From contig CAMCGZ010000002.1 in the NCBI GenBank assembly GCA_945874535.1, forward strand, positions 73,585 to 137,584: a stretch of 64,000 bases of DNA. The letters are read 5' to 3'. A program made the position numbers and the translations under genes. This DNA comes from Bdellovibrio sp. ZAP7. Its GTDB lineage: Bacteria > Bdellovibrionota > UBA1018 > CAIMNF01. Positions 2,583-58,568 of the stretch are shown piece after piece. The first letter of the stretch is position 1. Every line of letters starts with the position of its first letter. The notes beneath the pieces are model-generated. The model was not told where the DNA came from and searched no databases. It saw nothing but the letters and a program-made list of their open reading frames with translations.

Positions 2583-4292
2583 ATGGGCTTCCTGCTTTCT
2601 CTTTTATTTTGCGCTGCGCAAGCTGCCACTCCAGTGGTACCGGACTATGAGTTCCGCGTGAGCCTCGATCCCGCTTCGAAGGTGCCCCGTTGGATCCTCG
2701 AGTTCACCCCTCCGGCGGGGAATCACTTCAACTTAGGTGCCCCGATGAAGGCCACGGCCCATTCTGGATCCCCAGAGGGGACGATTTCCTTTATCCGGAC
2801 CGAATCGAAAAAGCAGCGGGTTCGCTTTGCGAGCTCGGATCTGAAACTGAAAGAGGGCGAAGAGATCGACTCTTCTTTGTTTTTGTGTGACGAGGCCAAA
2901 ACTTACTGCATCAAAAAGGTGCGGAAGTTTCCCCTTCGGGTGACGGTTTCCCGTGTCGAAAAACAGAAGGCGGCTATCTCGAAGTCGGCAAAAGATCGGG
3001 ACGGGTTTTTTGTGAATGCGCCCGAAGCGGCAATCGAGACTGCGGTGAAGACCAAGAAGCCGCTCCTGATCGATTTTTACGGGATCTGGTGCCCGCCCTG
3101 CAACCTGTACAACGAGAATGTGTTTCCTTCGCTTGAATTCCGGAGGGCTTCGAAGGACTTCGTTCTTTTGAAATTGGACGCAGACGATGAACGCTTCTTC
3201 AAGTGGAAGGCTCACTTCCGTGTCGGGGGGTATCCGACCCTGATCGTGACCCAGACCCCCGCATCGACCTCTTTGGCCTCAGTGTCGGAAGTGGACCGCA
3301 TCGTGGGCTACTTCGGCCCGAAGGCTTTTGTGAAGAAATTGAATGAGGCTCAATCGAGGGGGGGACGAAGCCCCGAGGAACGCCTGAAACAAAACGAGCA
3401 AGACCTGATCGCCGAGTACCGGCGCTTGATTCCGGTCCGGCTCGAGCAAAAAGACGAGGCGGGGGCTCTAGGCCTGATCCGGAAGGGACTTGCGCTGGAA
3501 CCCTCCGATCCCGAGCTCCGGCTTCGGGGGCTTGCGCTTCAGAAACCCCCCGCCGAGAGCCCTGTTCGTGAGGCGCTGCTGAACGAGGTCTTTTCGAAAT
3601 CAGCTTCGATACCGGACTCGACCTTGATGGTGGCACTGGATCAGGCGCTCGATCTGCCGGAAGGAAAATCGTCAGAGACCCGGAAAGCAGCTTTGTTCGC
3701 GGTTCAAGTCCTCGAGAAACGCCTCGATCTGGCAACCCTCATGCTCCCTGAGCTCGAGCTGTCTCTTGCCGACCTCATGGATTTCAAGAAGAGCCTGCTC
3801 GAAGGAGCCGGGGATTCCGAAGGCGTAAAAGCAGCACGGGTCGAAGCCATTCAGGCTTACCGGAAACTGCTCCGCCTCGGTCGGGACCCGGACTCGCGGG
3901 GGATCCATCTCGAACTCGCCGCATTGCTCTGGAAGAACGGCGAGATTGCGGAAGCGAAAGCGATTTATGCCAAGTTCATTAAAAAGTTTCCGGAAGAATT
4001 CACCTTTCACCATGCCGCGGCCGGGATGCACTTCGAACTCAAAGAGTTGAAAGAGGCGCGGGGACAGGCCGAGCTTGCGGTTCGCTTCGCATATGGCGAT
4101 AACCTCATCCGTTCGATGGAGCGTCTGACCAAGATCATGGCAGCCGAGGGTGAGCGCGATTTTGCCATCAGTCGGGCGCGTTTATTTTTAGAGAAGTTGA
4201 AAGTGGAGGAGGCTCCCGGAGTCCGTACCGGCCGTTATGTGGCCTCCTTCAAGAAAACCCTCGATGCGATCGAGAAAGGACCGATCAAATGA
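2583..4292 (+). CDS. Secreted thioredoxin-fold protein (WCPPC motif) fused to C-terminal TPR-like repeats
   Basis: Signal peptide. …LIDFYGIWCPPCNLY… CxxC thioredoxin motif; C-terminal half has repetitive helical (TPR-like) sequence. Confidence 0.6.
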   Translation: MGFLLSLLFCAAQAATPVVPDYEFRVSLDPASKVPRWILEFTPPAGNHFNLGAPMKATAHSGSPEGTISFIRTESKKQRVRFASSDLKLKEGEEIDSSLFLCDEAKTYCIKKVRKFPLRVTVSRVEKQKAAISKSAKDRDGFFVNAPEAAIETAVKTKKPLLIDFYGIWCPPCNLYNENVFPSLEFRRASKDFVLLKLDADDERFFKWKAHFRVGGYPTLIVTQTPASTSLASVSEVDRIVGYFGPKAFVKKLNEAQSRGGRSPEERLKQNEQDLIAEYRRLIPVRLEQKDEAGALGLIRKGLALEPSDPELRLRGLALQKPPAESPVREALLNEVFSKSASIPDSTLMVALDQALDLPEGKSSETRKAALFAVQVLEKRLDLATLMLPELELSLADLMDFKKSLLEGAGDSEGVKAARVEAIQAYRKLLRLGRDPDSRGIHLELAALLWKNGEIAEAKAIYAKFIKKFPEEFTFHHAAAGMHFELKELKEARGQAELAVRFAYGDNLIRSMERLTKIMAAEGERDFAISRARLFLEKLKVEEAPGVRTGRYVASFKKTLDAIEKGPIK

Positions 4293-5903: not shown

Positions 5904-5951
5904 GGATTCAGTTTAAGAGAGAACATCAAAGACAGGAAAGGAATTCCTCCC

Positions 5952-7445
5952 ATGTCTTTTCAAGGAAGATACTTCGCTCCCTGGTTTCTACTCGTTCTGA
6001 TCCTTTCTTCATCTTGCAGTACTGTGGAGCATGGGCCCGGCCGCAAACCAGCGAGTGCTTTGCATTTGCAAAAATTCAGAGTGAGCGAACACCTGGTCCG
6101 GACGCAGTGGCAACAATTCCGGAACTGGTCTGGAATCGCCACGAATTCGGGGGATGCGGAGTTGCAGGCCACACTGTTGAAAACACTGGTTCAGACCTAT
6201 GCCAAGGCCGATGAGTTGGTGGTGGAGCTCGATCGGCTGTTCAACTCTGGTGTGACGGTGGAGCAGTTGGTCCGGACACGCCCCGGCGAGCGGAACCTCT
6301 ATGCCGAGTTCCTGTCTTTGCGCGCACTGAAAGAAAGCATCGAAGAAGGGATCAAGAAAAGAGCGGAGATCCAGTTCAATGAAGCCCTCGATGCCGACAC
6401 TCCTAGGATCCCGGCGCTCGATCAGTTGGAGTCACAAGCCAGGAAATTGAGAGATGAGCACCCGGGACAAGAAGGTCTGGTTGACCTCGCACTTCAGGAG
6501 GTCCGTGAGCATGCCGGGGTACTCAATGCCGGATACAGCGAAGGTCGGATGGCGGTCCCAGCCCATTCCGCGGTTGATCTGAGTCTGGTCCGCAAGGTCC
6601 GGAAACAGATTCAGGAGCGCCCGGGTGAATCGCTTCGCGTCTTCGCACCTCAGGATGGTGAGGCCGGCATTCATGTCGATCGGTTCATTAAAAAAATCCA
6701 TTCCAGGACTGCAGAGGAGCTCTCGGCTGTTTTCAATCAGGGTGGCCGTCTTCCTGCCACTGATGGGATCAAGATCGAACCTTCCACCACCACTGCCGGG
6801 AACATCACCGGTGCCGGTTTCCCGAAGGGGGTTTGGGCCCTGACTTACGATGATGGCCCGGCCCGGACTACGGGAGCGGTTCTCGAGAATCTGAAGAAGC
6901 ACGACATCAAGGCGACTTTCTTCATGCTTTCCGGGCAAATCGACACCCCTAAAGAGTACCCCGAATTCGCGGTCAGGGAAGCCAAAGAGGGGCACGACGT
7001 CGCCTCGCACTCCTATTCTCATCCCCAGGTTCCGAAGCTCGCAGCTTCTCAGCGGGAGCGTGAAATCGGGGGCGCGGTGAAGGTGTTCGAGCAGGTGCTC
7101 GGAAAAAGGCCAGACTTTTACCGTCTTCCTTACGGCGCTGGGGTCTCGGTTCCTTCCATCCGGGCGGATATCGCCCATGCCTGCATGGTGCATGCTTTCT
7201 GGAACGTGGACACCCTCGATTGGCACGACAAGGATCCGGAGTTGATTTACCAGCGTAGCGTGAAGCAGGTCGAATCTCTCGGGCGCGGGATCATCCTCTT
7301 TCATGATATCCATTCGCAGTCGGTCACAGCCTCAGAAATGCTGATGCGGTATATGAAAGAAAAGGGAGTCCGGATGGTCACCCTTTCCGAGATCGTGAAA
7401 GAGATCAACGGGGGTCAATCCTGGAGCTGCACTCCGGTCAAATGA
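5952..7445 (+). CDS. Polysaccharide deacetylase (NodB/CE4 domain) with N-terminal signal/lipoprotein-like sequence
   Basis: Start taken at internal Met (MSFQGRYFAPWFLLVLILSSSCS) rather than the long upstream extension. …TYDDGP…HSYSHPQ… NodB-homology motifs. Confidence 0.7.
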   Translation: MSFQGRYFAPWFLLVLILSSSCSTVEHGPGRKPASALHLQKFRVSEHLVRTQWQQFRNWSGIATNSGDAELQATLLKTLVQTYAKADELVVELDRLFNSGVTVEQLVRTRPGERNLYAEFLSLRALKESIEEGIKKRAEIQFNEALDADTPRIPALDQLESQARKLRDEHPGQEGLVDLALQEVREHAGVLNAGYSEGRMAVPAHSAVDLSLVRKVRKQIQERPGESLRVFAPQDGEAGIHVDRFIKKIHSRTAEELSAVFNQGGRLPATDGIKIEPSTTTAGNITGAGFPKGVWALTYDDGPARTTGAVLENLKKHDIKATFFMLSGQIDTPKEYPEFAVREAKEGHDVASHSYSHPQVPKLAASQREREIGGAVKVFEQVLGKRPDFYRLPYGAGVSVPSIRADIAHACMVHAFWNVDTLDWHDKDPELIYQRSVKQVESLGRGIILFHDIHSQSVTASEMLMRYMKEKGVRMVTLSEIVKEINGGQSWSCTPVK

Positions 7446-49898: not shown

Positions 49899-50625
49899 TC
49901 AGAAGCCACAGACCCTGCATGGGCTCCAGGACCAGATCCGTTATCCGTTCGGAGATCCGAGGCTATTGATTCTCGCATTGACCCACGTCTCATACGGGCA
50001 GGAGAATCACCAGGAGCGTCTTCCGGTTCAGCGGAACAACGAACGTCTCGAGTTTCTGGGTGACTCAGTTCTGGGCTTGGTGATTTCGGATCTGTTGTTG
50101 GAAGCCTTTCCTGAAGCGAGTGAAGGGCAGTTGTCCAAGATGCGGGCGGCGGTGGTGAATGAGAAGACTCTGAGTGAGATCTCGAAAAGCCTGAGGCTGA
50201 GTGGTTTGATGCTTCTCGGGAAGGGGGAGATGCGCACCGGCGGAAACGAGAAGGCATCGATCCTTTCGAGTGCCTTCGAGGCATTGATTGCCGCCATCTA
50301 CATCGATGGGGGATTCAATGCGGTTTACCCTGTGGTCCGGTATCTCTTCGCACCACTTTTCAGGTCGGAAAACTGCTCGATTTCCTTTCAAGATCACAAA
50401 ACCAGACTTCAAGAGTTGATCCAGAGCCGGTACCGGCTCACTCCGACTTACCACCTGATCGCTTCGAGCGGTCCGGACCATGCCAAGGTCTTCACGGTGG
50501 AGGTCCGGGTCAAGGACCGGGTGCTCGCATCGAGCGAAGGTTCTTCAAAAAAGAATGCCGAGCAAAACGCGGCCTGTGAGGCCCTCCGGATTCTTCCGGA
50601 AATGGACGGAGGATTCGAGAAATGA
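49891..50625 (+). CDS. rnc: Ribonuclease III
   Basis: Start at MPDQKPQTL…; signature …ERLEFLGDSVL…; C-terminal dsRBD. Confidence 0.85.
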   Translation: MPDQKPQTLHGLQDQIRYPFGDPRLLILALTHVSYGQENHQERLPVQRNNERLEFLGDSVLGLVISDLLLEAFPEASEGQLSKMRAAVVNEKTLSEISKSLRLSGLMLLGKGEMRTGGNEKASILSSAFEALIAAIYIDGGFNAVYPVVRYLFAPLFRSENCSISFQDHKTRLQELIQSRYRLTPTYHLIASSGPDHAKVFTVEVRVKDRVLASSEGSSKKNAEQNAACEALRILPEMDGGFEK

Positions 50626-51569
50626 AATCGGGTGTGATCGCTTTGGTCGGAAGACCCAATACAGGGAAGAGCACATTTTTGAATGCCGTTCTGGGAGAGT
50701 CGATCTCGATTGTCACCCCCAAGGCGCAAACCACACGGGATCAGATCCGCGGCATCCTCTCGGATGAGCGGGGTCAGATCGTATTCGTGGACACGCCCGG
50801 AATCCACCGGGCCCGTGAGGGCGGTATCAACGCATTCATGATGCAGGAGGTTCGACGGGCGCTCGAGGGGCCGGATCTGGTGCTGTATCTGGTTGATCCT
50901 TGGAGTAAACCGGAAGCGGAAAGGCTGGTACTGGAGGTTTTGCGCCTGTCTGAGGCTCCAGTGCTCCCGATTCTGAATAAGTGTGATTTGAAGAAAAGAG
51001 AGCCTGAGAAGTTCGAATGGGTCGCTGCCTATTTTGAAGAGTGTCGGACAGTCCTGACCGGTGCGGGGGTGGAGGTCCTTCCTCCGATCGAGATTTCGGC
51101 CGAGAAGAAGACCGGTGTCCCCGAACTCGTGAAGGATTTGTTCGATCGTCTTCCGGACGGTCCTCCGCTCTATGAGGACCCGGAGGCCTTGACCGACCGG
51201 AGTTCGAGATTTGTCGTCGCCGAGATGATCCGGAAACAACTCTTCATGAAGCTCGGCGACGAATTGCCCTACAGTTGTGCCGTCGAGATCGAGAGTTATC
51301 GCGAGGATTTCAAGCCCGTTGCCATTTCGGCCCTGATTTATGTGGAGCGTGAAAGCCAGAAGGGCATGGTCATCGGTGCGGGGGGTAAAAAGATCAAAGA
51401 GATCGGTACTGCCTCACGTAAAGAGATCGAAGAACTCATCGGCGAGCGCGTGTTTCTCGAGTTGAGGGTGAAGGTTCTTGAAGGATGGACTTCAGAGTCC
51501 AGGAAGATGAAACAGTTGGGCTACGTGTTTGACGCCAAGGGCGCCCGGGCCGGTAAGGAAAAAAGATGA
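50622..51569 (+). CDS. era: GTPase Era
   Basis: G1 GRPNTGKST, G3 DTPG, G4 NKCD, C-terminal KH domain. Confidence 0.9.
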   Translation: MKSGVIALVGRPNTGKSTFLNAVLGESISIVTPKAQTTRDQIRGILSDERGQIVFVDTPGIHRAREGGINAFMMQEVRRALEGPDLVLYLVDPWSKPEAERLVLEVLRLSEAPVLPILNKCDLKKREPEKFEWVAAYFEECRTVLTGAGVEVLPPIEISAEKKTGVPELVKDLFDRLPDGPPLYEDPEALTDRSSRFVVAEMIRKQLFMKLGDELPYSCAVEIESYREDFKPVAISALIYVERESQKGMVIGAGGKKIKEIGTASRKEIEELIGERVFLELRVKVLEGWTSESRKMKQLGYVFDAKGARAGKEKR

Positions 51570-52924
51570 AGTCCATGAACTTGGTGATCGCAGGGCGCCC
51601 CAATGTCGGAAAAAGCAGTCTATTCAACAGGCTACTCGGCAGGAAGCGGGCTTTGGTGCTCGACACTCCGGGTGTGACCCGTGACCGGATCGTGGAGTCG
51701 GCCAGTTTCTGGGTGCGAGCCAAGGAATATTCAGTGAATTTGATCGACACCGGAGGGCTGGGGGAGGGGCAGTTCAAGGAGGAAATCCGTCGTCAGGTCG
51801 ACACCGCCCTCAAGGAGGCTTCGGTCGTATTATTCGTGGTCGACATCAAAGCAGGTCTCACCCATGCGGACGAGGAGGTTTTCTCGGAACTCCGGCGTTC
51901 GGGTGTCAGCGAAAAAATTCCCGTGATTCTGGTTCTGAATAAGGCCGATTCGGATCTGGCCGAAGAGCGCTTCGCCGAATTCTACGCTCTCGGTGTCGAG
52001 AATTTGATCCCGGTTTCTGCAGAGCATGCCCTTCAGATCGATGAGTTGAAAGAGATGGTGGTCGATCTTTTGAATCCGGAGCCGCTTCCCGTCATTTCTG
52101 ATGAAATACCCGACCCAGAGAAGGAGGAGGTTTATGTCCCCCGGACCCCACGAATCGCCATCGTCGGCCAGCCCAATGTTGGGAAAAGCACCTTATTGAA
52201 CGCAATTTGCGGCGAAAAGCGGACCATCGTGAGTCCCATCGCCGGTACCACGGTCGATGCGATCGACCTCGACATCAATTGGAACGGTAAGGACTTTACC
52301 GTCATCGATACCGCCGGCATCCGTCGGAAGAATAAAACGGAGCAAGGAATCGAAGTGCTTTCCGTGGTTCAAACCCGCAAAACTCTGGAGCGCGCCGATC
52401 TTGCTTTCCTGGTGATGGACGGAGAGCAAGGAGTTTACGAGCAGGACGAGAAGATTGCAGGCCTGATCGAGGAGATGGGTTGCAGTGTGATTCTGGTTCT
52501 CAATAAGTGGGATACCCAGGTCGGTAACAAAGAATTTTCCCAGAAGCTCGCCGAAGAAGAGATCCGAAAGAAAATCAGGTTTCTAGGATATGCACCGCTG
52601 GTTTTCACCACGGCCAAGGATTCGATCGGTCTGGACCGCCTGTTTCGGGTCGCCCAAGCCGTGATCGAGCAGCGATCCCTCAAAATTCAGACCAAGGAAC
52701 TGACGGAGTTCCTCCGGAATGCGGCCGAGGTTCACAACCCCAACAATGCCAAGTTTTATTTTGTGCACCAATCGGGACGGAATCCACCGACCTTCGTGGC
52801 CCATGTGAGTGATCCGAAGAAGATCCACTTCAGCCTGAGCCGGCATCTGGTCAAGGCGATCCGCGGACACTACGGTTATCTCGGAACTCCGGTTCGGCTG
52901 CACTTTTTGAAGACTAAGGGATAA
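51566..52924 (+). CDS. der: GTPase Der (EngA), two tandem GTPase domains + KH-like
   Basis: GRPNVGKSS … GQPNVGKST, NKAD/NKWD. Confidence 0.9.
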   Translation: MKSMNLVIAGRPNVGKSSLFNRLLGRKRALVLDTPGVTRDRIVESASFWVRAKEYSVNLIDTGGLGEGQFKEEIRRQVDTALKEASVVLFVVDIKAGLTHADEEVFSELRRSGVSEKIPVILVLNKADSDLAEERFAEFYALGVENLIPVSAEHALQIDELKEMVVDLLNPEPLPVISDEIPDPEKEEVYVPRTPRIAIVGQPNVGKSTLLNAICGEKRTIVSPIAGTTVDAIDLDINWNGKDFTVIDTAGIRRKNKTEQGIEVLSVVQTRKTLERADLAFLVMDGEQGVYEQDEKIAGLIEEMGCSVILVLNKWDTQVGNKEFSQKLAEEEIRKKIRFLGYAPLVFTTAKDSIGLDRLFRVAQAVIEQRSLKIQTKELTEFLRNAAEVHNPNNAKFYFVHQSGRNPPTFVAHVSDPKKIHFSLSRHLVKAIRGHYGYLGTPVRLHFLKTKG

Positions 52925-52987
52925 GGGGTCTTGCAAACGCTCCGGGGCATGGGCAGACTGGGGTTAATCGTTCCTCAGTTTCTCAGT

Positions 52988-53026
52988 GCCGGGGTGGCGA
53001 AATTGGTAGACGCACAGGACTTAAAA
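52988..53026 (+). tRNA. Disrupted host tRNA-Leu(UAA), 5' part (nt 1-39: acceptor 5' strand through anticodon loop CTTAAAA)
   Basis: GCCGGGGTGGCGAAATTGGTAGACGCACAGGACTTAAAA then diverges (CTTTTGGCG…) instead of TCCTG. Completes perfectly with 57411-57460. Confidence 0.8.
53000..53026. repeat. Left copy of 27-bp direct repeat (AAATTGGTAGACGCACAGGACTTAAAA) = att core, tRNA-Leu nt 13-39
   Basis: Perfect identity with 57384-57410; flanking bases differ (G vs A upstream, C vs T downstream). Confidence 0.85.
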
Positions 53027-53077: not shown

Positions 53078-53296
53078 ATGGTAGAGCAGAAAACCCTCAA
53101 AAAGGTAGAGCAATCTACCGATAAGATCGTAGATATGGCGAGCTTCCGCGAAGCAAAGATGCTTTACGAAATCTCCCAGCGTATAAACCCTCAACACACA
53201 CGAGAGGAAATCTACGAAGCGGTAGAGTTTTTTAAAGCAAATGAAAAGAGAACGAAAGATTCCAGAAAATGCGGAGGTGTTCTTCACACTCATTAA
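53078..53296 (+). CDS. Small ORF (72 aa) upstream of and overlapping the integrase start; doubtful
   Basis: Only ORF evidence; contains the two GGTAGAGCA repeats. Confidence 0.2.
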   Translation: MVEQKTLKKVEQSTDKIVDMASFREAKMLYEISQRINPQHTREEIYEAVEFFKANEKRTKDSRKCGGVLHTH

Positions 53297-54419
53297 GCCG
53301 ACTCCAAACAAGGAGGGGCCGAATGCTCGTCGCTCATTTGCTTTCATCATGGACATTCAATACGCTGATGGCCGCCGCGATCAACCTCGCTACCAGTTTC
53401 CCGAAGGCGACGACCGACTAAAGGTCATCAATAAATCCTACAAGATCGCCGACGATAAAAACGAAGCCTTCGAGAAGTGCCTCAAGCTCGCTTTAGACCT
53501 TCAAAAGAAACTTTACGTTGAGCACGGTCTTGAGAAAAAGACGGTCTTCAATCAGGAAAACTACGGAGTGCTGGATCAGTTTTTCGACTGGAAATACAGC
53601 GCGAAGAAAACGAAAGATAAAACTGCCGCGTACAACGATTTCCGCCGCGCAGTCGATGCCGTTGGTTCAATTCCGCTGCAAACTGCAACTAAGGCGGAAA
53701 TCCAGAAAGCGATCTCCGCCGCCGAAAATAAACAGCAACGGAGAATTGCGAGCCGCTTGAACATGATTTTTAAGTATCTCAAGCGAGATATTGTTTTGGA
53801 TAAGGACAAGAAAAAAAGAGTTTCTGTCCGCTACCTGAACGAAAAAGAATTCGCCTCGGTGATGAAGCTCATTAAGGACGAAAATCTGCGCTTAGTTTTC
53901 GAGATGGCCTTTCATTCCGGCTGTCGCATGGGCGAACTTTTCGCTTTAAATGAAGCTGATTTGCGTGCAGGGTTGCTGACCGTCGATAAGCAAATGCTCC
54001 GAACCGAAGAGGCTGTCCGTCGTCGGAAGCAAGAATACAAAGCCAAGGGCAAAACTTGGACGAATTGGATTCCGAAACCTACTGACCTGACCACCCCGAC
54101 AAAAAACGAACAAAGTCGGCGGGTCGTCGTTTTCGAAGAGTTCGCTCCCGCCTTTAGAAAATGGTGCGAGCTGGATTACGAAACAAAATTTAAGCTGCGG
54201 CATTCGCGGTTAGCGGAGATTTTAAAGACCGCTTGCGAGCAGAAGTTTCCGCAAAATGCTCAGAAACAATGCGTAGCTCATTGGACCGCGCCCCTCAACT
54301 TGGAAACCGCATCGAGGTTTGCCAGGAATTTTACACAGGCTACGAACTCCACAACGAGAACATCACCGTCCTCAAGTCGCTTATGCTGGCAAAAAAATAA
54401 TCGTTACGGGCGCCCGTAA
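53241..54419 (+). CDS. int: Tyrosine-type site-specific integrase (catalytic Tyr position possibly substituted: …ETASRFARNF…)
   Basis: Core motifs …AFHSGCRMGELFAL… (Arg I) and …KLRHSRLAEIL… (H-x-x-R). C-terminal region aligns by eye to the T-x-R-Y-A-H nucleophile motif but reads R-F-A-R. Start could alternatively be Met at 53349. Confidence 0.75.
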   Translation: MKRERKIPENAEVFFTLIKPTPNKEGPNARRSFAFIMDIQYADGRRDQPRYQFPEGDDRLKVINKSYKIADDKNEAFEKCLKLALDLQKKLYVEHGLEKKTVFNQENYGVLDQFFDWKYSAKKTKDKTAAYNDFRRAVDAVGSIPLQTATKAEIQKAISAAENKQQRRIASRLNMIFKYLKRDIVLDKDKKKRVSVRYLNEKEFASVMKLIKDENLRLVFEMAFHSGCRMGELFALNEADLRAGLLTVDKQMLRTEEAVRRRKQEYKAKGKTWTNWIPKPTDLTTPTKNEQSRRVVVFEEFAPAFRKWCELDYETKFKLRHSRLAEILKTACEQKFPQNAQKQCVAHWTAPLNLETASRFARNFTQATNSTTRTSPSSSRLCWQKNNRYGRP

Positions 54420-54490: not shown

Positions 54491-54814
54491 GCCCCCATGG
54501 TGAAATCGGTAGACACAAAGGACTTCAATTGGAGCCTCGTCTGGGAAACCTTATGAGTGGACACAGGGATAACGGTGAACGCTTACTGCTTCGCAGTAGT
54601 TGCCAACACCGTGGGAACATCGAGCAAGAAATTGGGAGATGAGCGCCGTAGAGACTAGATACCTGTGCACCTAAAATTCGCAAGAATCACGGTGAAGATA
54701 TAGTCCAGACCACAAACAAGACCGATTTATTTCGGAGTTGGCGGCGAAAGTCGAAGTGGTAAGAAAATCCTTGCCCGTAAGGGAGTGCCAGTTCGATTCT
54801 GGCTGGGGGCACCA
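54491..54814 (+). tRNA. tRNA-Leu(UAA) interrupted by a group I intron in the anticodon loop (exons 54491-54525 and 54764-54814; mature 86 nt incl. CCA)
   Basis: Exon 1 GCCCCCATGGTGAAATCGGTAGACACAAAGGACTT. Exon 2 AAAATCCTTG-CCCGTAAGGG-AGT-GCCAGTTCGATTCTGGC-TGGGGGC-A-CCA. Acceptor GCCCCCA/TGGGGGC, anticodon stem AAGGA/TCCTT, loop CTT|AAAA, long variable arm (type II), discriminator A. Confidence 0.8.
54526..54763 (+). ncRNA. Group I intron (tRNA-Leu(UAA) anticodon-loop type, ~238 nt, no ORF)
   Basis: Inserted after U34, ends in G. R-like element CGTAGAGACTAGATACC (54648-54664) and a perfect S consensus AAGATATAGTCC (54695-54706) form P7. GAAA tetraloop (GCGAAAG) near the 3' end. P1 region CAATTGGAGCC resembles cyanobacterial tRNA-Leu introns (UUGAGCC). 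Confidence 0.75.
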
Positions 54815-54815
54815 A

Positions 54816-55259
54816 CTATTTTTTCTGAATCTTTTTTTGATTCTTACTCGATTTTTTTGAGATCGAGTTTGGATATCGATCAAGTGAACAAGCTTTCCGC
54901 ACCTCAGATAAAAGACTGTACTGCTTAACATCAGTGTACGGATTGAGAAACGTCTCCACATTTTTTAGCTCAGCTTCCCCGTACAGCGAAAAAGTCTCGG
55001 CGGGAATGTCGATGGTTGCTTCAACGTACTGACCTTTTTCATTAATCGTATTCGCTGGCACAAAAGACCGAAGCTTGAATCGGGTTTCGGAATTAGTTTT
55101 TGGATTAACGATAAAATACCAGCTCGGTTCATTCATCGCTTTAACAAGAAGTCCCTCAAGAGTGCAGGTGCCTTTTGGAAATCTCGTAAGGGCAAAGCTG
55201 GCCGAAGGAAATGCCAAGACCAAAATTAAAGATAAAAGAATTTTATTTTTAGTAAGCAT
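54816..55259 (-). CDS. Secreted hypothetical protein (147 aa), overlapping and co-directional with the C13 peptidase gene
   Basis: Signal peptide MLTKNKILLSLILVLAFPSASFA; Lys-rich C-terminus. 11-nt overlap with the upstream gene. Confidence 0.5.
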   Translation of the reverse strand: MLTKNKILLSLILVLAFPSASFALTRFPKGTCTLEGLLVKAMNEPSWYFIVNPKTNSETRFKLRSFVPANTINEKGQYVEATIDIPAETFSLYGEAELKNVETFLNPYTDVKQYSLLSEVRKACSLDRYPNSISKKSSKNQKKIQKK

Positions 55260-56754
55260 ATTCCAAGCATCTCCTAATCGACGAATACTCCTTGATCATA
55301 TTGTCGTCGCCATATTTCAATAAATCCAATTCAAGATTCAAAATTTCGTATTTACGACGGTCTTTTTCAACTTCAGCTAACTTAATTTTTATTTGCTGTG
55401 CATCCAACTGGCCTTGCTGGCGTTTCGCGGCTTGCTCTTGGGGGGACAGGCGATCCCAGTTCTTTGCGGACTCAGCAATACTCGCCTTGAGGTCCTGAAT
55501 CCTCAAATCAAGGTCATCAAGAATAGCAGCGGAATCTTTGCCTTTAAGATTTTGGATAGTCTTTTCCAAACTCCCTTTAAGATATTGATGGCGACTTCCT
55601 GGAATACCATCAGTTGAAATTCCCATCTTCCCTTTCATTCGCTCAAAATCTTCGAGCAAACTTGCGATCTGTTTGAAAGCATCGTCGGGATGCGTGGAGC
55701 AACCGCTGACAGATTGAATGGGACTGATTTTTTTAGATCTTCCTTCGAGGATTTTGTTTTTATTCTTCGTAAGAAACCACTCAAGACTTGTCGTCGGAAT
55801 ATTCTGCGGATTATCTAAGTTCGTCGCATACAAGTGGGCATCCCAGTAGGTCGCTTTGCTGTCTTTGTCGGTATCCAATTTCTTTTTCAAAGCATAAGGA
55901 AAGTTCTGTCCATATAGGTCCAGATCAATGGATTCAGATAAACTCGTTTTGTTTCCTTGTTGATTGGCGAACACACAAACATTCGAGGAGGTCAGCTCGG
56001 TTAAACCACCGCCATAGCAAATATTCGTCACAACTCGAATCTGATTCGTTAACGGGAACTCACGAAGTAAATCACCCAATTGATTTACTGTCATGCTTTC
56101 GCCCCAAAGTGTCACAGTAGAACCACCTTCGGGATCTTGTTCACCGTGATCGGTTATGTAGAGGGTTAAATTGTCGCCCGGTTTTAATTTTCCGCGAAGC
56201 TCTCGGAACTTGTCTTTTATATTTTGCGAAGTCGCCCCGCCGTCGAGTTCGCGTTTTTCGCCGCTAAAAAGATAATCGAGGGTAATTGTGCTCGGAGCTG
56301 CAGGTTTGTCTGACTTATCCGATTTAACACCCGTTCCATCCCCTGATGGGATTGTTCCCATTCGAGTGGGTTCCATTTTGGTCTCACTCGGCATCACTTG
56401 GGCCGAGGGAGGAGAACCATATGAACCGCCGCCGCCATACCGGCCCGGCTGTCCCATCTCTGGAAATATCGGCTGAGTACTTGGCGAGTTAGTGTCTTCG
56501 ACCTTGCCGCTACCGTAAAGCACCATGATGTGATCCGATGCAATTCTGTTGCTACGAAAAGCATCATACATCGTGCGAACATTTTCGAAGTACCGTTGAT
56601 GATTGCTGGCTCGGTTTGCCCCACCGTTGATAATGACCGCATAATTTTTGCCGTCTCCGTCGCCTGCATTTGCGACCGAGATTGCGAGAATTAAAATTAA
56701 AGAAAAATAAAGTTTAACCATTCCAGTTATCTTATCGACACAGATTAAGTTCAA
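55249..56754 (-). CDS. Secreted legumain-like cysteine peptidase (peptidase family C13, clan CD caspase-like fold) with C-terminal coiled-coil region
   Basis: Signal peptide (…ILILAISVANA). N-terminal …KNYAVIINGGANRASNHQRYF…IMVLYGSG…; catalytic His in …LTLYITDHGEQ… and Cys in …RVVTNICYGGG… ~43 residues apart, as in legumain (…YFTDHG… / …IEACESGS…). Confidence 0.7.
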   Translation of the reverse strand: MNLICVDKITGMVKLYFSLILILAISVANAGDGDGKNYAVIINGGANRASNHQRYFENVRTMYDAFRSNRIASDHIMVLYGSGKVEDTNSPSTQPIFPEMGQPGRYGGGGSYGSPPSAQVMPSETKMEPTRMGTIPSGDGTGVKSDKSDKPAAPSTITLDYLFSGEKRELDGGATSQNIKDKFRELRGKLKPGDNLTLYITDHGEQDPEGGSTVTLWGESMTVNQLGDLLREFPLTNQIRVVTNICYGGGLTELTSSNVCVFANQQGNKTSLSESIDLDLYGQNFPYALKKKLDTDKDSKATYWDAHLYATNLDNPQNIPTTSLEWFLTKNKNKILEGRSKKISPIQSVSGCSTHPDDAFKQIASLLEDFERMKGKMGISTDGIPGSRHQYLKGSLEKTIQNLKGKDSAAILDDLDLRIQDLKASIAESAKNWDRLSPQEQAAKRQQGQLDAQQIKIKLAEVEKDRRKYEILNLELDLLKYGDDNMIKEYSSIRRCLEYAY

Positions 56755-56839: not shown

Positions 56840-57154
56840 TCAGCACTTTGACGCCCAGGCCTTTAATCCAATACCGTTCAGACGATCCAAAGCACCTATT
56901 TTATCCATCCCATAAGCTTCGAGCACCTTTATAAAATCAAGCGGATGAATTTTTCCGGCGGACTCGTATTCTCGTAAAAGTTCGGTATCAATTCCTATTT
57001 TTTCTGCGGCTTCGTCGATTGTAACGGGATTACCCCGAATCCAATCCGCATTCATTTCGTAGTGTTCAGCTAATTCCTTCGCCCAGGCGCGAAGCACAAC
57101 CTCTTCCGCATCCGTGGGCTTACGGTCGCCGTAAAGCCATCTCTTTTTTCCCAT
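56840..57154 (-). CDS. Xis/AlpA-like HTH DNA-binding protein (putative excisionase/regulator)
   Basis: …PVTIDEAAEKIGIDTELLREYESAGKIHP… fits the HTH_17/excisionase pattern (xTxxEAAExLGxxxxTLxRxxxxGxxP). Gene sits at the attR-proximal end. Confidence 0.5.
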   Translation of the reverse strand: MGKKRWLYGDRKPTDAEEVVLRAWAKELAEHYEMNADWIRGNPVTIDEAAEKIGIDTELLREYESAGKIHPLDFIKVLEAYGMDKIGALDRLNGIGLKAWASKC

Positions 57155-57383: not shown

Positions 57384-57410
57384 AAATTGGTAGACGCACA
57401 GGACTTAAAA
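57384..57410. repeat. Right copy of 27-bp direct repeat (att core)
   Basis: Identical to 53000-53026. Confidence 0.85.
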
Positions 57411-57460
57411 TCCTGGGTTTGGCAACAGACGTACCGGTTCGATTCCGGTCCTCGGCACCA
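57384..57460 (+). tRNA. Disrupted host tRNA-Leu(UAA), 3' part (nt 13-86 + CCA); lacks the 5' acceptor strand and D-stem
   Basis: AAATTGGTAGACGCACAGGACTTAAAATCCTG-GGTTTGGCAACAGACGT-ACCGGTTCGATTCCGGT-CCTCGGC-A-CCA; upstream sequence (…TTTGCCCAAATC) cannot pair with CCTCGGC. Confidence 0.8.
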
Positions 57461-57506: not shown

Positions 57507-58568
57507 ATGCTGAAGCATGTTTTTTCTGTAGTGGGTTTCTTGATCCTCTTGGCGGCTTGTTCCTCACCGCCACCTCCGCCTCCAGCCCTTCCCGACGGGG
57601 CGTTTTTGCGGATCCGCTCATTCATGAAGCAGGAGGAGTCCAAGTCTTTCCTCGAAGATGGATCGGGTTCCCGTGAGGTCGAAGTCTGGTACGCGACCAA
57701 TCGTGAGCAAGAGGGGGTTTTTCCGGCAGCATCGGTCAGTTTCGGTAAAGCCCTGGTCGAGGTTTCGGATGAGCGGAGTGTGGGGATACTGCCGTCCCGT
57801 ATCGGAGTGAGAGTCCCGACTCCACTCGAGGAATGGAAGAAGCAATTGGGAGGTTCGATCGAGTGGGGTGTTCTGGTCTTCACTCACGGTTTCAATGTGC
57901 GCTTCGAGGAGGCGATTCAACGAGCGGCTCAGTTGGCCGTTGACCTGAAGTTCCAGGGTCGCGTCGTCCTGCTATCGTGGCCCGCCGGTGGTAATGGCGG
58001 CTTGCTGGCGCAAACTCTGATCAACCGGACCTATGATCTGAATCGCAGACATGCGCTTTCCAGTGTCGAGCCTGCCACGCAGGTGCTTCGTGAATTATCG
58101 TCGCTTTGGATTCCGATGCAGGTGGTGGTGCATTCGATGGGACACGAGGTGATTTTACCTGCACTTTCCAGGCTTCCGACCGAGGCGGGGCGGGTCGTGG
58201 TTCAAGAACTCCTTCTGAACGCTCCGGATTTCGATCCCGACGAGTTCCGAAAAATCCTCCCGGCCCTGAAGGCCGTCACCGGACGTATCACGCTCTATTG
58301 CTCGGACAAGGATCATGCGATGACGGCTTCAAAAAAAGTGAATCACCAGGAACGTTTGGGCTCTTGCATCCGGCAGGAGGGCGTCGATGTGGTGAACGTC
58401 TCGGAGGTCGATGATCCCGGTCTCACCGGTCTGGGGCACGGTTATTATGCATCGCGTCCTGTGTTGACTGATGTCCGCCAAGTATTGTTTGGAGTCGGTG
58501 CGAAACAGCGCCTGTTCATCCGTAGAGCACCCGACGGGGCTCGCTCGGATTATATTTTGCGCAAGTAG
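57507..58568 (+). CDS. Alpha/beta hydrolase lipoprotein, DUF900-like
   Basis: Lipoprotein signal …FLILLAACSSPPPPPP; …VFTHGFN… and nucleophile elbow …VHSMGHEV…. Confidence 0.6.
   Translation: MLKHVFSVVGFLILLAACSSPPPPPPALPDGAFLRIRSFMKQEESKSFLEDGSGSREVEVWYATNREQEGVFPAASVSFGKALVEVSDERSVGILPSRIGVRVPTPLEEWKKQLGGSIEWGVLVFTHGFNVRFEEAIQRAAQLAVDLKFQGRVVLLSWPAGGNGGLLAQTLINRTYDLNRRHALSSVEPATQVLRELSSLWIPMQVVVHSMGHEVILPALSRLPTEAGRVVVQELLLNAPDFDPDEFRKILPALKAVTGRITLYCSDKDHAMTASKKVNHQERLGSCIRQEGVDVVNVSEVDDPGLTGLGHGYYASRPVLTDVRQVLFGVGAKQRLFIRRAPDGARSDYILRK

Follow-up and report, generated by a model that had tools for sequence, protein, structure and literature searches.

The stretch of DNA examined here, called the window throughout, comprises 64,000 nucleotides (nt) of contig CAMCGZ010000002.1 from Bdellovibrio sp. 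ZAP7. Between positions 54,816 and 56,754 its minus strand carries a two-gene module: a gene for a predicted exported cysteine peptidase of the legumain family (MEROPS C13, clan CD), referred to below as the protease, and a smaller gene for a second predicted exported protein, referred to as the partner. An earlier note, written from the letters of the window, had described the pair as a secreted legumain-like peptidase with a small secreted companion. The two open reading frames (ORFs), of 501 and 147 amino acids, and the 11-nt overlap between them are found where that note placed them, and each of the four strings that it quoted (KNYAVIINGGANRASNHQ, IMVLYGSG, LYITDHGEQ and VVTNICYGGG) is present. 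The features of the module are as follows.

55249 to 56754, minus strand: protease ORF, 501 amino acids from a TTG at 56754, gene for a divergent C13 (legumain-like) cysteine peptidase
56665 to 56721, minus strand: predicted Sec signal peptide of the protease, M12 to A30, MVKLYFSLILILAISVANA, followed by GDG, placed from homologue starts and the hydropathy heuristic described below
55720 to 56649, minus strand: predicted caspase-haemoglobinase-fold catalytic domain, residues about 36 to 345
56602 to 56604, 56146 to 56151 and 56017 to 56019, minus strand: codons of N51, of D202-H203 and of C246
Within the catalytic domain, minus strand: equivalents of the S1 pocket, R54, Y55, N244, S271 and N284
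56296 to 56475, minus strand: disordered insert rich in Pro, Gly and Ser within the catalytic domain, residues 94 to 153, recognised by a predicted local distance difference test (pLDDT) score of 25-44, alignment gaps and composition
55264 to 55683, minus strand: C-terminal helical-bundle domain, residues 358 to 497, well predicted in the model
55249 to 55259, minus strand: dual-coding overlap ATGCTTACTAA, read as Y-A-Y-stop in the protease frame and as M-L-T-K in the partner frame
54816 to 55259, minus strand: gene of the small exported partner, 147 amino acids, signal peptide predicted to A23

Both ORFs are real genes, because the protease has 11 homologues, counted as clusters in a set of 5.8 billion proteins (expectation value, E, 0 to 3e-77; 35-91 % identity), and the partner has 17, with 32-93 % identity to the window partner within its family. 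The TTG start of the protease ORF is probably wrong. In the alignment the homologues begin at M12, the ATG at 56721, which would give a protein of 490 residues and is probably the real start. Signal peptides, which the earlier note had read on both proteins, were judged by a heuristic combining hydropathy with the residues at -3 and -1 (AXA) across both families, and signal-peptide-like N-termini are predicted throughout each of them. Both proteins thus appear to be exported by Sec, and the protease may travel beyond the periplasm. The predicted cleavage site of the partner falls between SFA and LTRFP, and its first cysteine is C32. No lipobox was seen when the N-terminus was examined across the partner family, and a lipoprotein reading of the partner was ruled out for that reason.

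Membership of the protease in family C13 had to be reached through intermediates and a broadened profile, because the protein itself lies below the Pfam threshold. The Pfam profile Peptidase_C13 (PF01650) scores 17.8 bits on it against a cut-off of 22.8 (E 0.0025), over residues 191-274 only, and similarly weak matches occur in nine of 12 family members, the best with E 3.4e-4. Against PDB sequences, phmmer with the protease returned no match and the narrow protease-family profile returned metacaspase-4 alone (E 0.43). NCBIfam, PADLOC and PHROGs held nothing meaningful for either protein, which leaves a defence-system or phage-protein reading unsupported. A profile of the protease family (A1), searched against 1.84 billion cluster representatives, yielded 1,384 matches at E<=1e-3, of which 25 reached E<=1e-30. 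Ten of these matches were sampled for Pfam scoring: the four closest had no Pfam match, and the other six (P0052, P0057, P0065, P0078, P0083 and P0089; E 1e-15 to 1e-18) scored 34-52 bits on PF01650, above its threshold. The bacterial C13 proteins linked in this way have in common the motif pair TDHG ... QC(Y/F)SGG, with 40-47 residues between its halves. The wider C13-like group is therefore large in bacteria, contrary to the earlier note, which had called such peptidases uncommon there.

A second profile (A2) was built from 16 catalytic domains covering the protease subfamily and the bacterial group that passes the C13 threshold. It matched legumains at E 3.5e-15 to 1e-11 and, taken together, legumains, plant asparaginyl endopeptidases and ligases and the GPI transamidase (GPI8) at E 3.5e-15 to 1e-5, with metacaspases ranking after, from E 6e-10. 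In the resulting alignment to human legumain the triad falls on equivalent positions (N51 on Asn42, H203 on His148, C246 on Cys189), and the spacing of the His/Cys dyad, described earlier as legumain-like, is 43 residues compared with 41 in legumain. D202 corresponds to Asp147, R54 to Arg44 and S271 to Ser216, while three positions are changed: Y55 stands for His45, N244 for Glu187 and N284 for Asp231. Throughout the protease subfamily, and across most of the wider clade, N51, R54, Y55, D202, H203, N244 and C246 do not vary; S271 too is invariant in the subfamily.

The predicted structure points the same way. An AlphaFold2 model computed from the A1 alignment has a mean pLDDT of 77 and a predicted template modelling (pTM) score of 0.71, and a Foldseek search of the PDB with this model placed legumain first (E 2.5e-8; template modelling score 0.62-0.65 on the target), then GPI8, then caspases. 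By this model the protease has a caspase-haemoglobinase fold with C13 structures as its closest relatives. By structure alone C13 is only narrowly ahead of metacaspases, and the sequence profiles separate the two more clearly. On profile and predicted fold together, the protease is a true but divergent member of C13 with its catalytic residues intact. The family and fold assigned in the earlier note therefore hold: the profile link is significant, the fold is the expected one and the dyad aligns, although the direct PF01650 score to which that note had pointed as a check stays below threshold and the link runs through intermediates and the broadened profile. The note's long C-terminal coiled coil survives as a helical domain at residues 358-497, but this domain matches generic antiparallel helical bundles. 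It is a plain bundle, and structure comparison detected no counterpart in the protease of the C-terminal activation peptide and LSAM (death-domain-like) prodomain of legumain.

These features set the protease apart from its characterised relatives. Human legumain (PF01650, PDB 4aw9) is about 19 % identical to it. In legumain, specificity for Asn comes from an S1 pocket formed by Arg44, His45, Ser216 and Asp231, of which Asp231 must be protonated for Asp to be accepted, and the LSAM prodomain both caps the active site in self-inhibition and is needed for stability (PMC4357240). The protease keeps two of these pocket residues (R54 and S271) and replaces His45 by Y55 and Asp231 by N284; it also carries Asn for Glu187 and an additional 60-residue disordered insert, whose length among relatives runs from almost nothing to about 130 residues. 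In place of the death-domain-like prodomain it has the helical bundle. Unlike legumain it is bacterial, probably acts in the periplasm or outside the cell at neutral pH, and comes with an obligatory downstream partner gene. With Arg54 and Ser271 kept, the peptidase would be specific for Asn or Asp at P1; with Asn284 and Tyr55 in place of Asp231 and His45, it would have no need of acid pH, since a neutral Asn284 would relax that requirement.

The uncharacterised bacterial Peptidase C13 proteins (500-900 amino acids, with TDHGG ... GQC(Y/F)SGGF) belong to the same catalytic family, with profile E values of 1e-13 to 1e-18, and have G44, G45, N51, R54, Y55, H203, G204, L216, W217, C246 and G249 as invariants in common with the protease. 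Unlike the protease, they pass the Pfam threshold; they also have longer chains, and the family profile aligns with their catalytic core only. The subfamily in the window differs from them in its TNIC(Y/F)GGGL motif, in its helical C-terminal domain ending in C-L-x-Y-x-Y and in its coupled partner. The protease is thus a distinct C13 variant, because it is below the Pfam threshold, has another C-terminal domain and an altered S1 pocket, and is coupled to an obligatory partner. No paper characterising a bacterial C13 enzyme was found in the literature searched, where most matches were judged on title or abstract.

The arrangement of the two genes is conserved. A GGAG lies 13 nt upstream of the overlap, and the same 11-nt overlap is present at nucleotide level in all seven loci that were read (the window, L001, L003, L005, L007, L008 and L010). 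Its consensus, ATGC(T/A/C)TA(C/T)TAA, is translated as Y-A-Y-stop in the protease frame and as M-(L/H/P)-(T/I)-(K/N) in that of the partner, and the overlap is exactly 11 nt wherever gene calls exist. The partner gene follows directly in every locus with downstream sequence (L001/L002, L003/L004, L005, L007, L008/L009, L010, L013-L015, L016 and the P0001 contig); at L013-L015 it was tblastn that placed a partner homologue immediately after the protease. Adjacency and overlap hold even in a subfamily as distant as E 3.7e-50. Since the partner start sits inside the last codons of the protease in this conserved way, the pair probably forms a translationally coupled two-gene operon, in which co-transcription and a fixed protease-to-partner stoichiometry would be expected. 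The conserved protease C-terminus, CLEYAY in the window, is in part a dual-coding constraint, because the partner start lies within the same codons. C496, always five residues from the C-terminus, is conserved across the protease relatives, as is C352 just ahead of the helical domain; a C352-C496 disulfide stapling this domain in the exported protein is plausible.

The model of the partner (pLDDT 80.6) shows a signal helix, five β-strands, one C-terminal helix and a disordered Lys-rich tail at residues 128-147, and it suggests a five-stranded β-barrel of about 100 residues resembling an oligonucleotide/oligosaccharide-binding (OB) fold. In structure comparison it is matched best by inhibitors. 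Every member of the close family has C32 and C124. Among its exposed segments the best conserved is T55-N56-S57-E58-T59-R60-F61, located between strands 2 and 3. Of 16 sequences, 13 have Asn at position 56 and the others Asp, Glu or Gln. A tail motif, DRYPNS, is kept in close relatives; the more distant partners stop directly behind C124 and lack it. The Lys-rich tail (KKSSKNQKKIQKK) is encoded by the reverse complement of the T-rich stretch at 54816-54860, directly after a convergent tRNA gene of the island described below, and this stretch may double as the terminator of that tRNA. An NPY motif in the partner was considered as a cleavage site and set aside: N106 is Glu in the partner at L016, and Asn-Pro is an unlikely scissile bond.

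Two known kinds of inhibitor bear on the role of the partner. Potempins are β-barrel inhibitors of 98-132 residues, among which PotA, PotC and PotD have five-stranded OB-folds; the gene of each potempin is transcribed together with that of its secreted target, one of the KLIKK peptidases of Tannerella forsythia (PMC9890683). They are lipoproteins encoded upstream of their peptidases, and they inhibit several other catalytic classes, with none described as a C13 inhibitor (PMC9890683). The partner is, in its model, a small exported β-barrel like the potempins, whose barrels are of OB or eight-stranded type, and the likeness is one of structure and gene organisation; in sequence the two stand at 10-15 % with no similarity, and the gene order is reversed, with the partner downstream, overlapping by 11 nt and lacking a lipobox. 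To inhibit legumain, cystatin E uses a loop, Ser38-Asn39-Ser40, that binds like a substrate, with Asn39 in S1 (PMC4506564; PDB 4n6o). The T55-N56-S57 loop of the partner offers a possible mechanistic parallel to S38-N39-S40 of cystatin E/M, drawn only from its conservation and from where it lies, between strands 2 and 3; the folds, an OB barrel and a cystatin, are unrelated.

The account favoured here, with moderate confidence, is that of a coupled operon for an exported, divergent legumain-family (C13, clan CD) cysteine endopeptidase and an inhibitor or guardian partner, carried on an acquired 4.4-kb island. The catalytic domain would act through an Asn51-His203-Cys246 triad. After export of both proteins, the partner would bind the peptidase 1:1 in the periplasm as its cognate inhibitor or guardian, much as potempins do with KLIKK proteases, and would keep it inactive until the pair separates, standing in for the missing prodomain. 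The conserved Thr-Asn-Ser loop of the partner would sit in the S1 site as the Ser-Asn-Ser loop of cystatin E does in legumain; this mode, with N56 as the P1 residue, is a preferred guess by analogy. The earlier note had left the partner as an inhibitor or immunity protein, a chaperone or a substrate. The structural evidence leans, short of proof, to the first, which is the best supported of the three readings and is held tentatively.

Several observations weigh against this account. The protease scores under the Pfam C13 gathering threshold. Position 284 varies outside the close subfamily, so that the argument about S1 and pH is local to the close subfamily. The alignment around this position is of low identity. 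In four more distant relatives (P0021, P0040, P0041 and P0042) the catalytic His and/or Cys is lost; the substitutions include His to Tyr or Pro and Cys to Thr, Pro, Ala or Ser, and the family profile is still matched over most of their length. These four are probably pseudo-peptidases, and some members of the wider clade would therefore work without catalysis; the window protease keeps its catalytic residues and is not among such variants. The partner departs from potempins in having no lipobox and in being encoded downstream of its protease. Finally, the partner at L016 has neither C32 nor C124, and it is nonetheless homologous to the window partner (hhalign probability 99 %, E 5.9e-18).

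Alternatively, the two proteins could be an enzyme and its substrate, the C13 enzyme processing or transpeptidating the partner at N56-S57 in the loop or at N131-S132 in the DRYPNS tail. Family C13 includes transamidases and ligases, and both GPI8 and the plant asparaginyl ligases process substrates of their own. The top structural and profile matches of the protease include GPI transamidase and peptide asparaginyl ligases. Asp202 next to His203 is invariant, and legumain needs the corresponding Asp147 for its ligase activity (PMC4506564). Close relatives keep the DRYPNS tail, and strict 1:1 coupling would also suit a dedicated substrate. However, the operon is conserved where distant partners lack the DRYPNS tail, no acceptor molecule or other sorting component was seen among the genes neighbouring the distant-locus operons, and a conserved loop on a folded OB barrel would sooner be expected of an inhibitor, so that this alternative is considered unlikely.

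Equally improbable is a partner that serves as a folding or secretion chaperone, or as a structural subunit, in the maturation, stability or targeting of the peptidase. Conserved translational coupling implies stoichiometric co-production; the peptidase has no legumain-type prodomain, and legumain depends on its prodomain for stability (PMC4357240); and catalytically dead relatives in the wider clade are among the matches to the full-length profile. The partner, however, is unlike known periplasmic chaperones and its top structural matches are inhibitors, although the evidence barely separates a chaperone from an inhibitor. Very improbable is a reading in which the large protein is a pseudo-peptidase, its caspase fold serving for binding without catalysis, and the operon has a non-proteolytic envelope function: four distant relatives without His and/or Cys and the sub-threshold Pfam score would suit it, but N51, D202, H203 and C246 are invariant in the window subfamily and most of the wider clade, and the S1 pocket retains R54 and S271.

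The module is carried in the window by an island with the following features.

52988 to 53026, plus strand: attL, the 5' half of the host tRNA-Leu(UAA), its last 27 nt (53000 to 53026) being the att core
53241 to 54419, plus strand: island integrase gene, tyrosine recombinase (PHROG phrog_1 integrase, E 4.5e-18, residues 71-308 only)
54491 to 54814, plus strand: island-borne tRNA-Leu(UAA) with a 238-nt group I intron (54526 to 54763), found by ARAGORN with introns allowed and by in-silico splicing
56840 to 57154, minus strand: 104-amino-acid helix-turn-helix protein, encoded upstream of the protease in the same orientation, with weak MerR/HTH_3 matches
57384 to 57460, plus strand: attR, the second 27-nt core (57384 to 57410) and the 3' half of the host tRNA-Leu(UAA) (57411 to 57460)

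The island has a guanine plus cytosine (GC) content of 45.5 %, compared with 55.6 % in the flanks on both sides, and its 4.36 kb are bounded by a perfect 27-nt direct repeat (53000-53026 and 57384-57410) that corresponds to positions 13-39 of the tRNA. The traits of a tRNA-targeting island are all present: direct repeats derived from a tRNA, deviant GC and an ORF resembling a tyrosine integrase, the catalytic end of which looks decayed. When the halves of the host tRNA-Leu(UAA) are joined in silico, a canonical tRNA of 89 nt results. It is restored at neither junction, where only the 27-nt core is duplicated, and this accounts for the failure of ARAGORN, run without introns, to find any tRNA in the island region. 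Islands usually rebuild their target tRNA, and for this reason the split looks like a true disruption of the host gene.

The island brings a tRNA-Leu(UAA) of its own, the 3' end of which lies 1 nt from the partner stop codon. Its intron interrupts the anticodon between U34 and A35 (CUU/c...g/AAAA), and splicing in silico yields a canonical 86-nt tRNA. On the Rfam Intron_gpI model the intron scores 25.9 bits, below the Rfam threshold of 50, with the P1 helix aligned and the conserved group I core strings AGAGACUAGA and GAAGAUAUAGUC aligning as well; the score is above the 18-20 bits or so that Williams used together with a split-tRNA call (bioRxiv 10.1101/2020.01.27.920355). The setting of the intron is Leu.3Ug, the classical one named in the same work (bioRxiv 10.1101/2020.01.27.920355). 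The island-borne tRNA may replace the one that the island destroys, and if so the island would be hard to lose.

On the integrase, Pfam covers the first half of the catalytic domain only; its C-terminal 80 or so residues are Ser/Thr/Arg-rich nonsense, and three-frame translation reveals integrase-like fragments in other frames. The gene is probably a frameshifted pseudogene whose C-terminal catalytic region has decayed. It gave no tblastn match to phage genomes, and a 72-amino-acid ORF (53078-53296) overlaps its start. The helix-turn-helix protein, which could be either excisionase-like or a regulator, had no tblastn match in the other module loci and belongs to the island rather than to the module. 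A contig from another sample (L012, Logan ERR3719164_287615) is 100 % identical to window positions 50566-53026 and stops at 53026, exactly where the att core ends. Such an end would fit an assembly-graph branch between occupied and empty sites, and the exact coincidence with the att core suggests that the island is mobile now or was so recently. Just outside the island, and unrelated to the protease-partner finding, lies a DUF900 α/β-hydrolase gene (57507-58568, plus strand; Pfam E 1.6e-41), the N-terminus of which (LLAAC) resembles that of a lipoprotein.

The close protease family is rare, with the 11 clusters noted above and three further metagenome loci, and a scan of viral contigs found no relative. 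Among GTDB representative genomes the family occurs in one only, a metagenome-assembled genome of the Pseudobdellovibrionaceae (JAYTOY010000007.1, locus L006). There, at 5941-6900, the protease is an internally deleted remnant, matching at residues 214-287 and 402-501 only, next to an intact partner, and the module is thus decaying in some genomes; a tRNA-Leu(GAG) stands 1.6 kb away. L006 and L007, the closest relatives, lie beside tRNA(-Leu) sequences like the window copy. At L007, the closest full-length relative, the module adjoins (locus positions 3368-4269) a toxin-antitoxin pair of the nucleotidyltransferase/HEPN-like (MNT-HepT) type and, where the contig ends, a partial tRNA; these neighbours fit another island context. 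The more distant relatives whose flanks were long enough to read (L001, L003, L005, L008, L010 and L016) are placed among housekeeping genes, with neighbours such as NADH dehydrogenase, ALAD/SufE, thymidylate kinase, ABC-F and UvrC. In most of them the GC content of the module is in line with that of its flanks (33-41 % and 35-43 %), L001 being about 6 points lower. Because the relatives are mostly chromosomal, the module is native to low-GC lineages and was taken up only secondarily by a tRNA-targeting island. The earlier description of the genes as mobile-element cargo fits the window copy on its low-GC tRNA island but not the module in general.

Legumains and their plant relatives are in use as Asn-specific proteases and peptide ligases. 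A compact bacterial enzyme with an ordinary Sec signal peptide, no acid-dependent prodomain and activity at neutral pH, if these traits hold, would be a useful source for engineering. In its fullest form, which is possible and rather doubtful, the finding would comprise a new class of C13 inhibitor, an OB barrel placing a Thr-Asn-Ser loop in S1; the first characterised bacterial legumain system, with a neutral-pH, Asn/Asp-specific exported protease or ligase; and a module mobilisable on an island that makes itself indispensable because it splits the tRNA-Leu(UAA) of the host and brings a replacement with an intron. A virulence, predation or interbacterial role is speculation. One in prey digestion is conceivable, because the only taxonomically labelled relative comes from a genome of the Pseudobdellovibrionaceae, a family of predatory bacteria. 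If the account is true, an OB-fold partner coupled through a dual-coding overlap would be a new protease-inhibitor pairing, and the module would offer a model, open to testing, for the way in which bacteria protect their own periplasm against a cysteine protease that they export.

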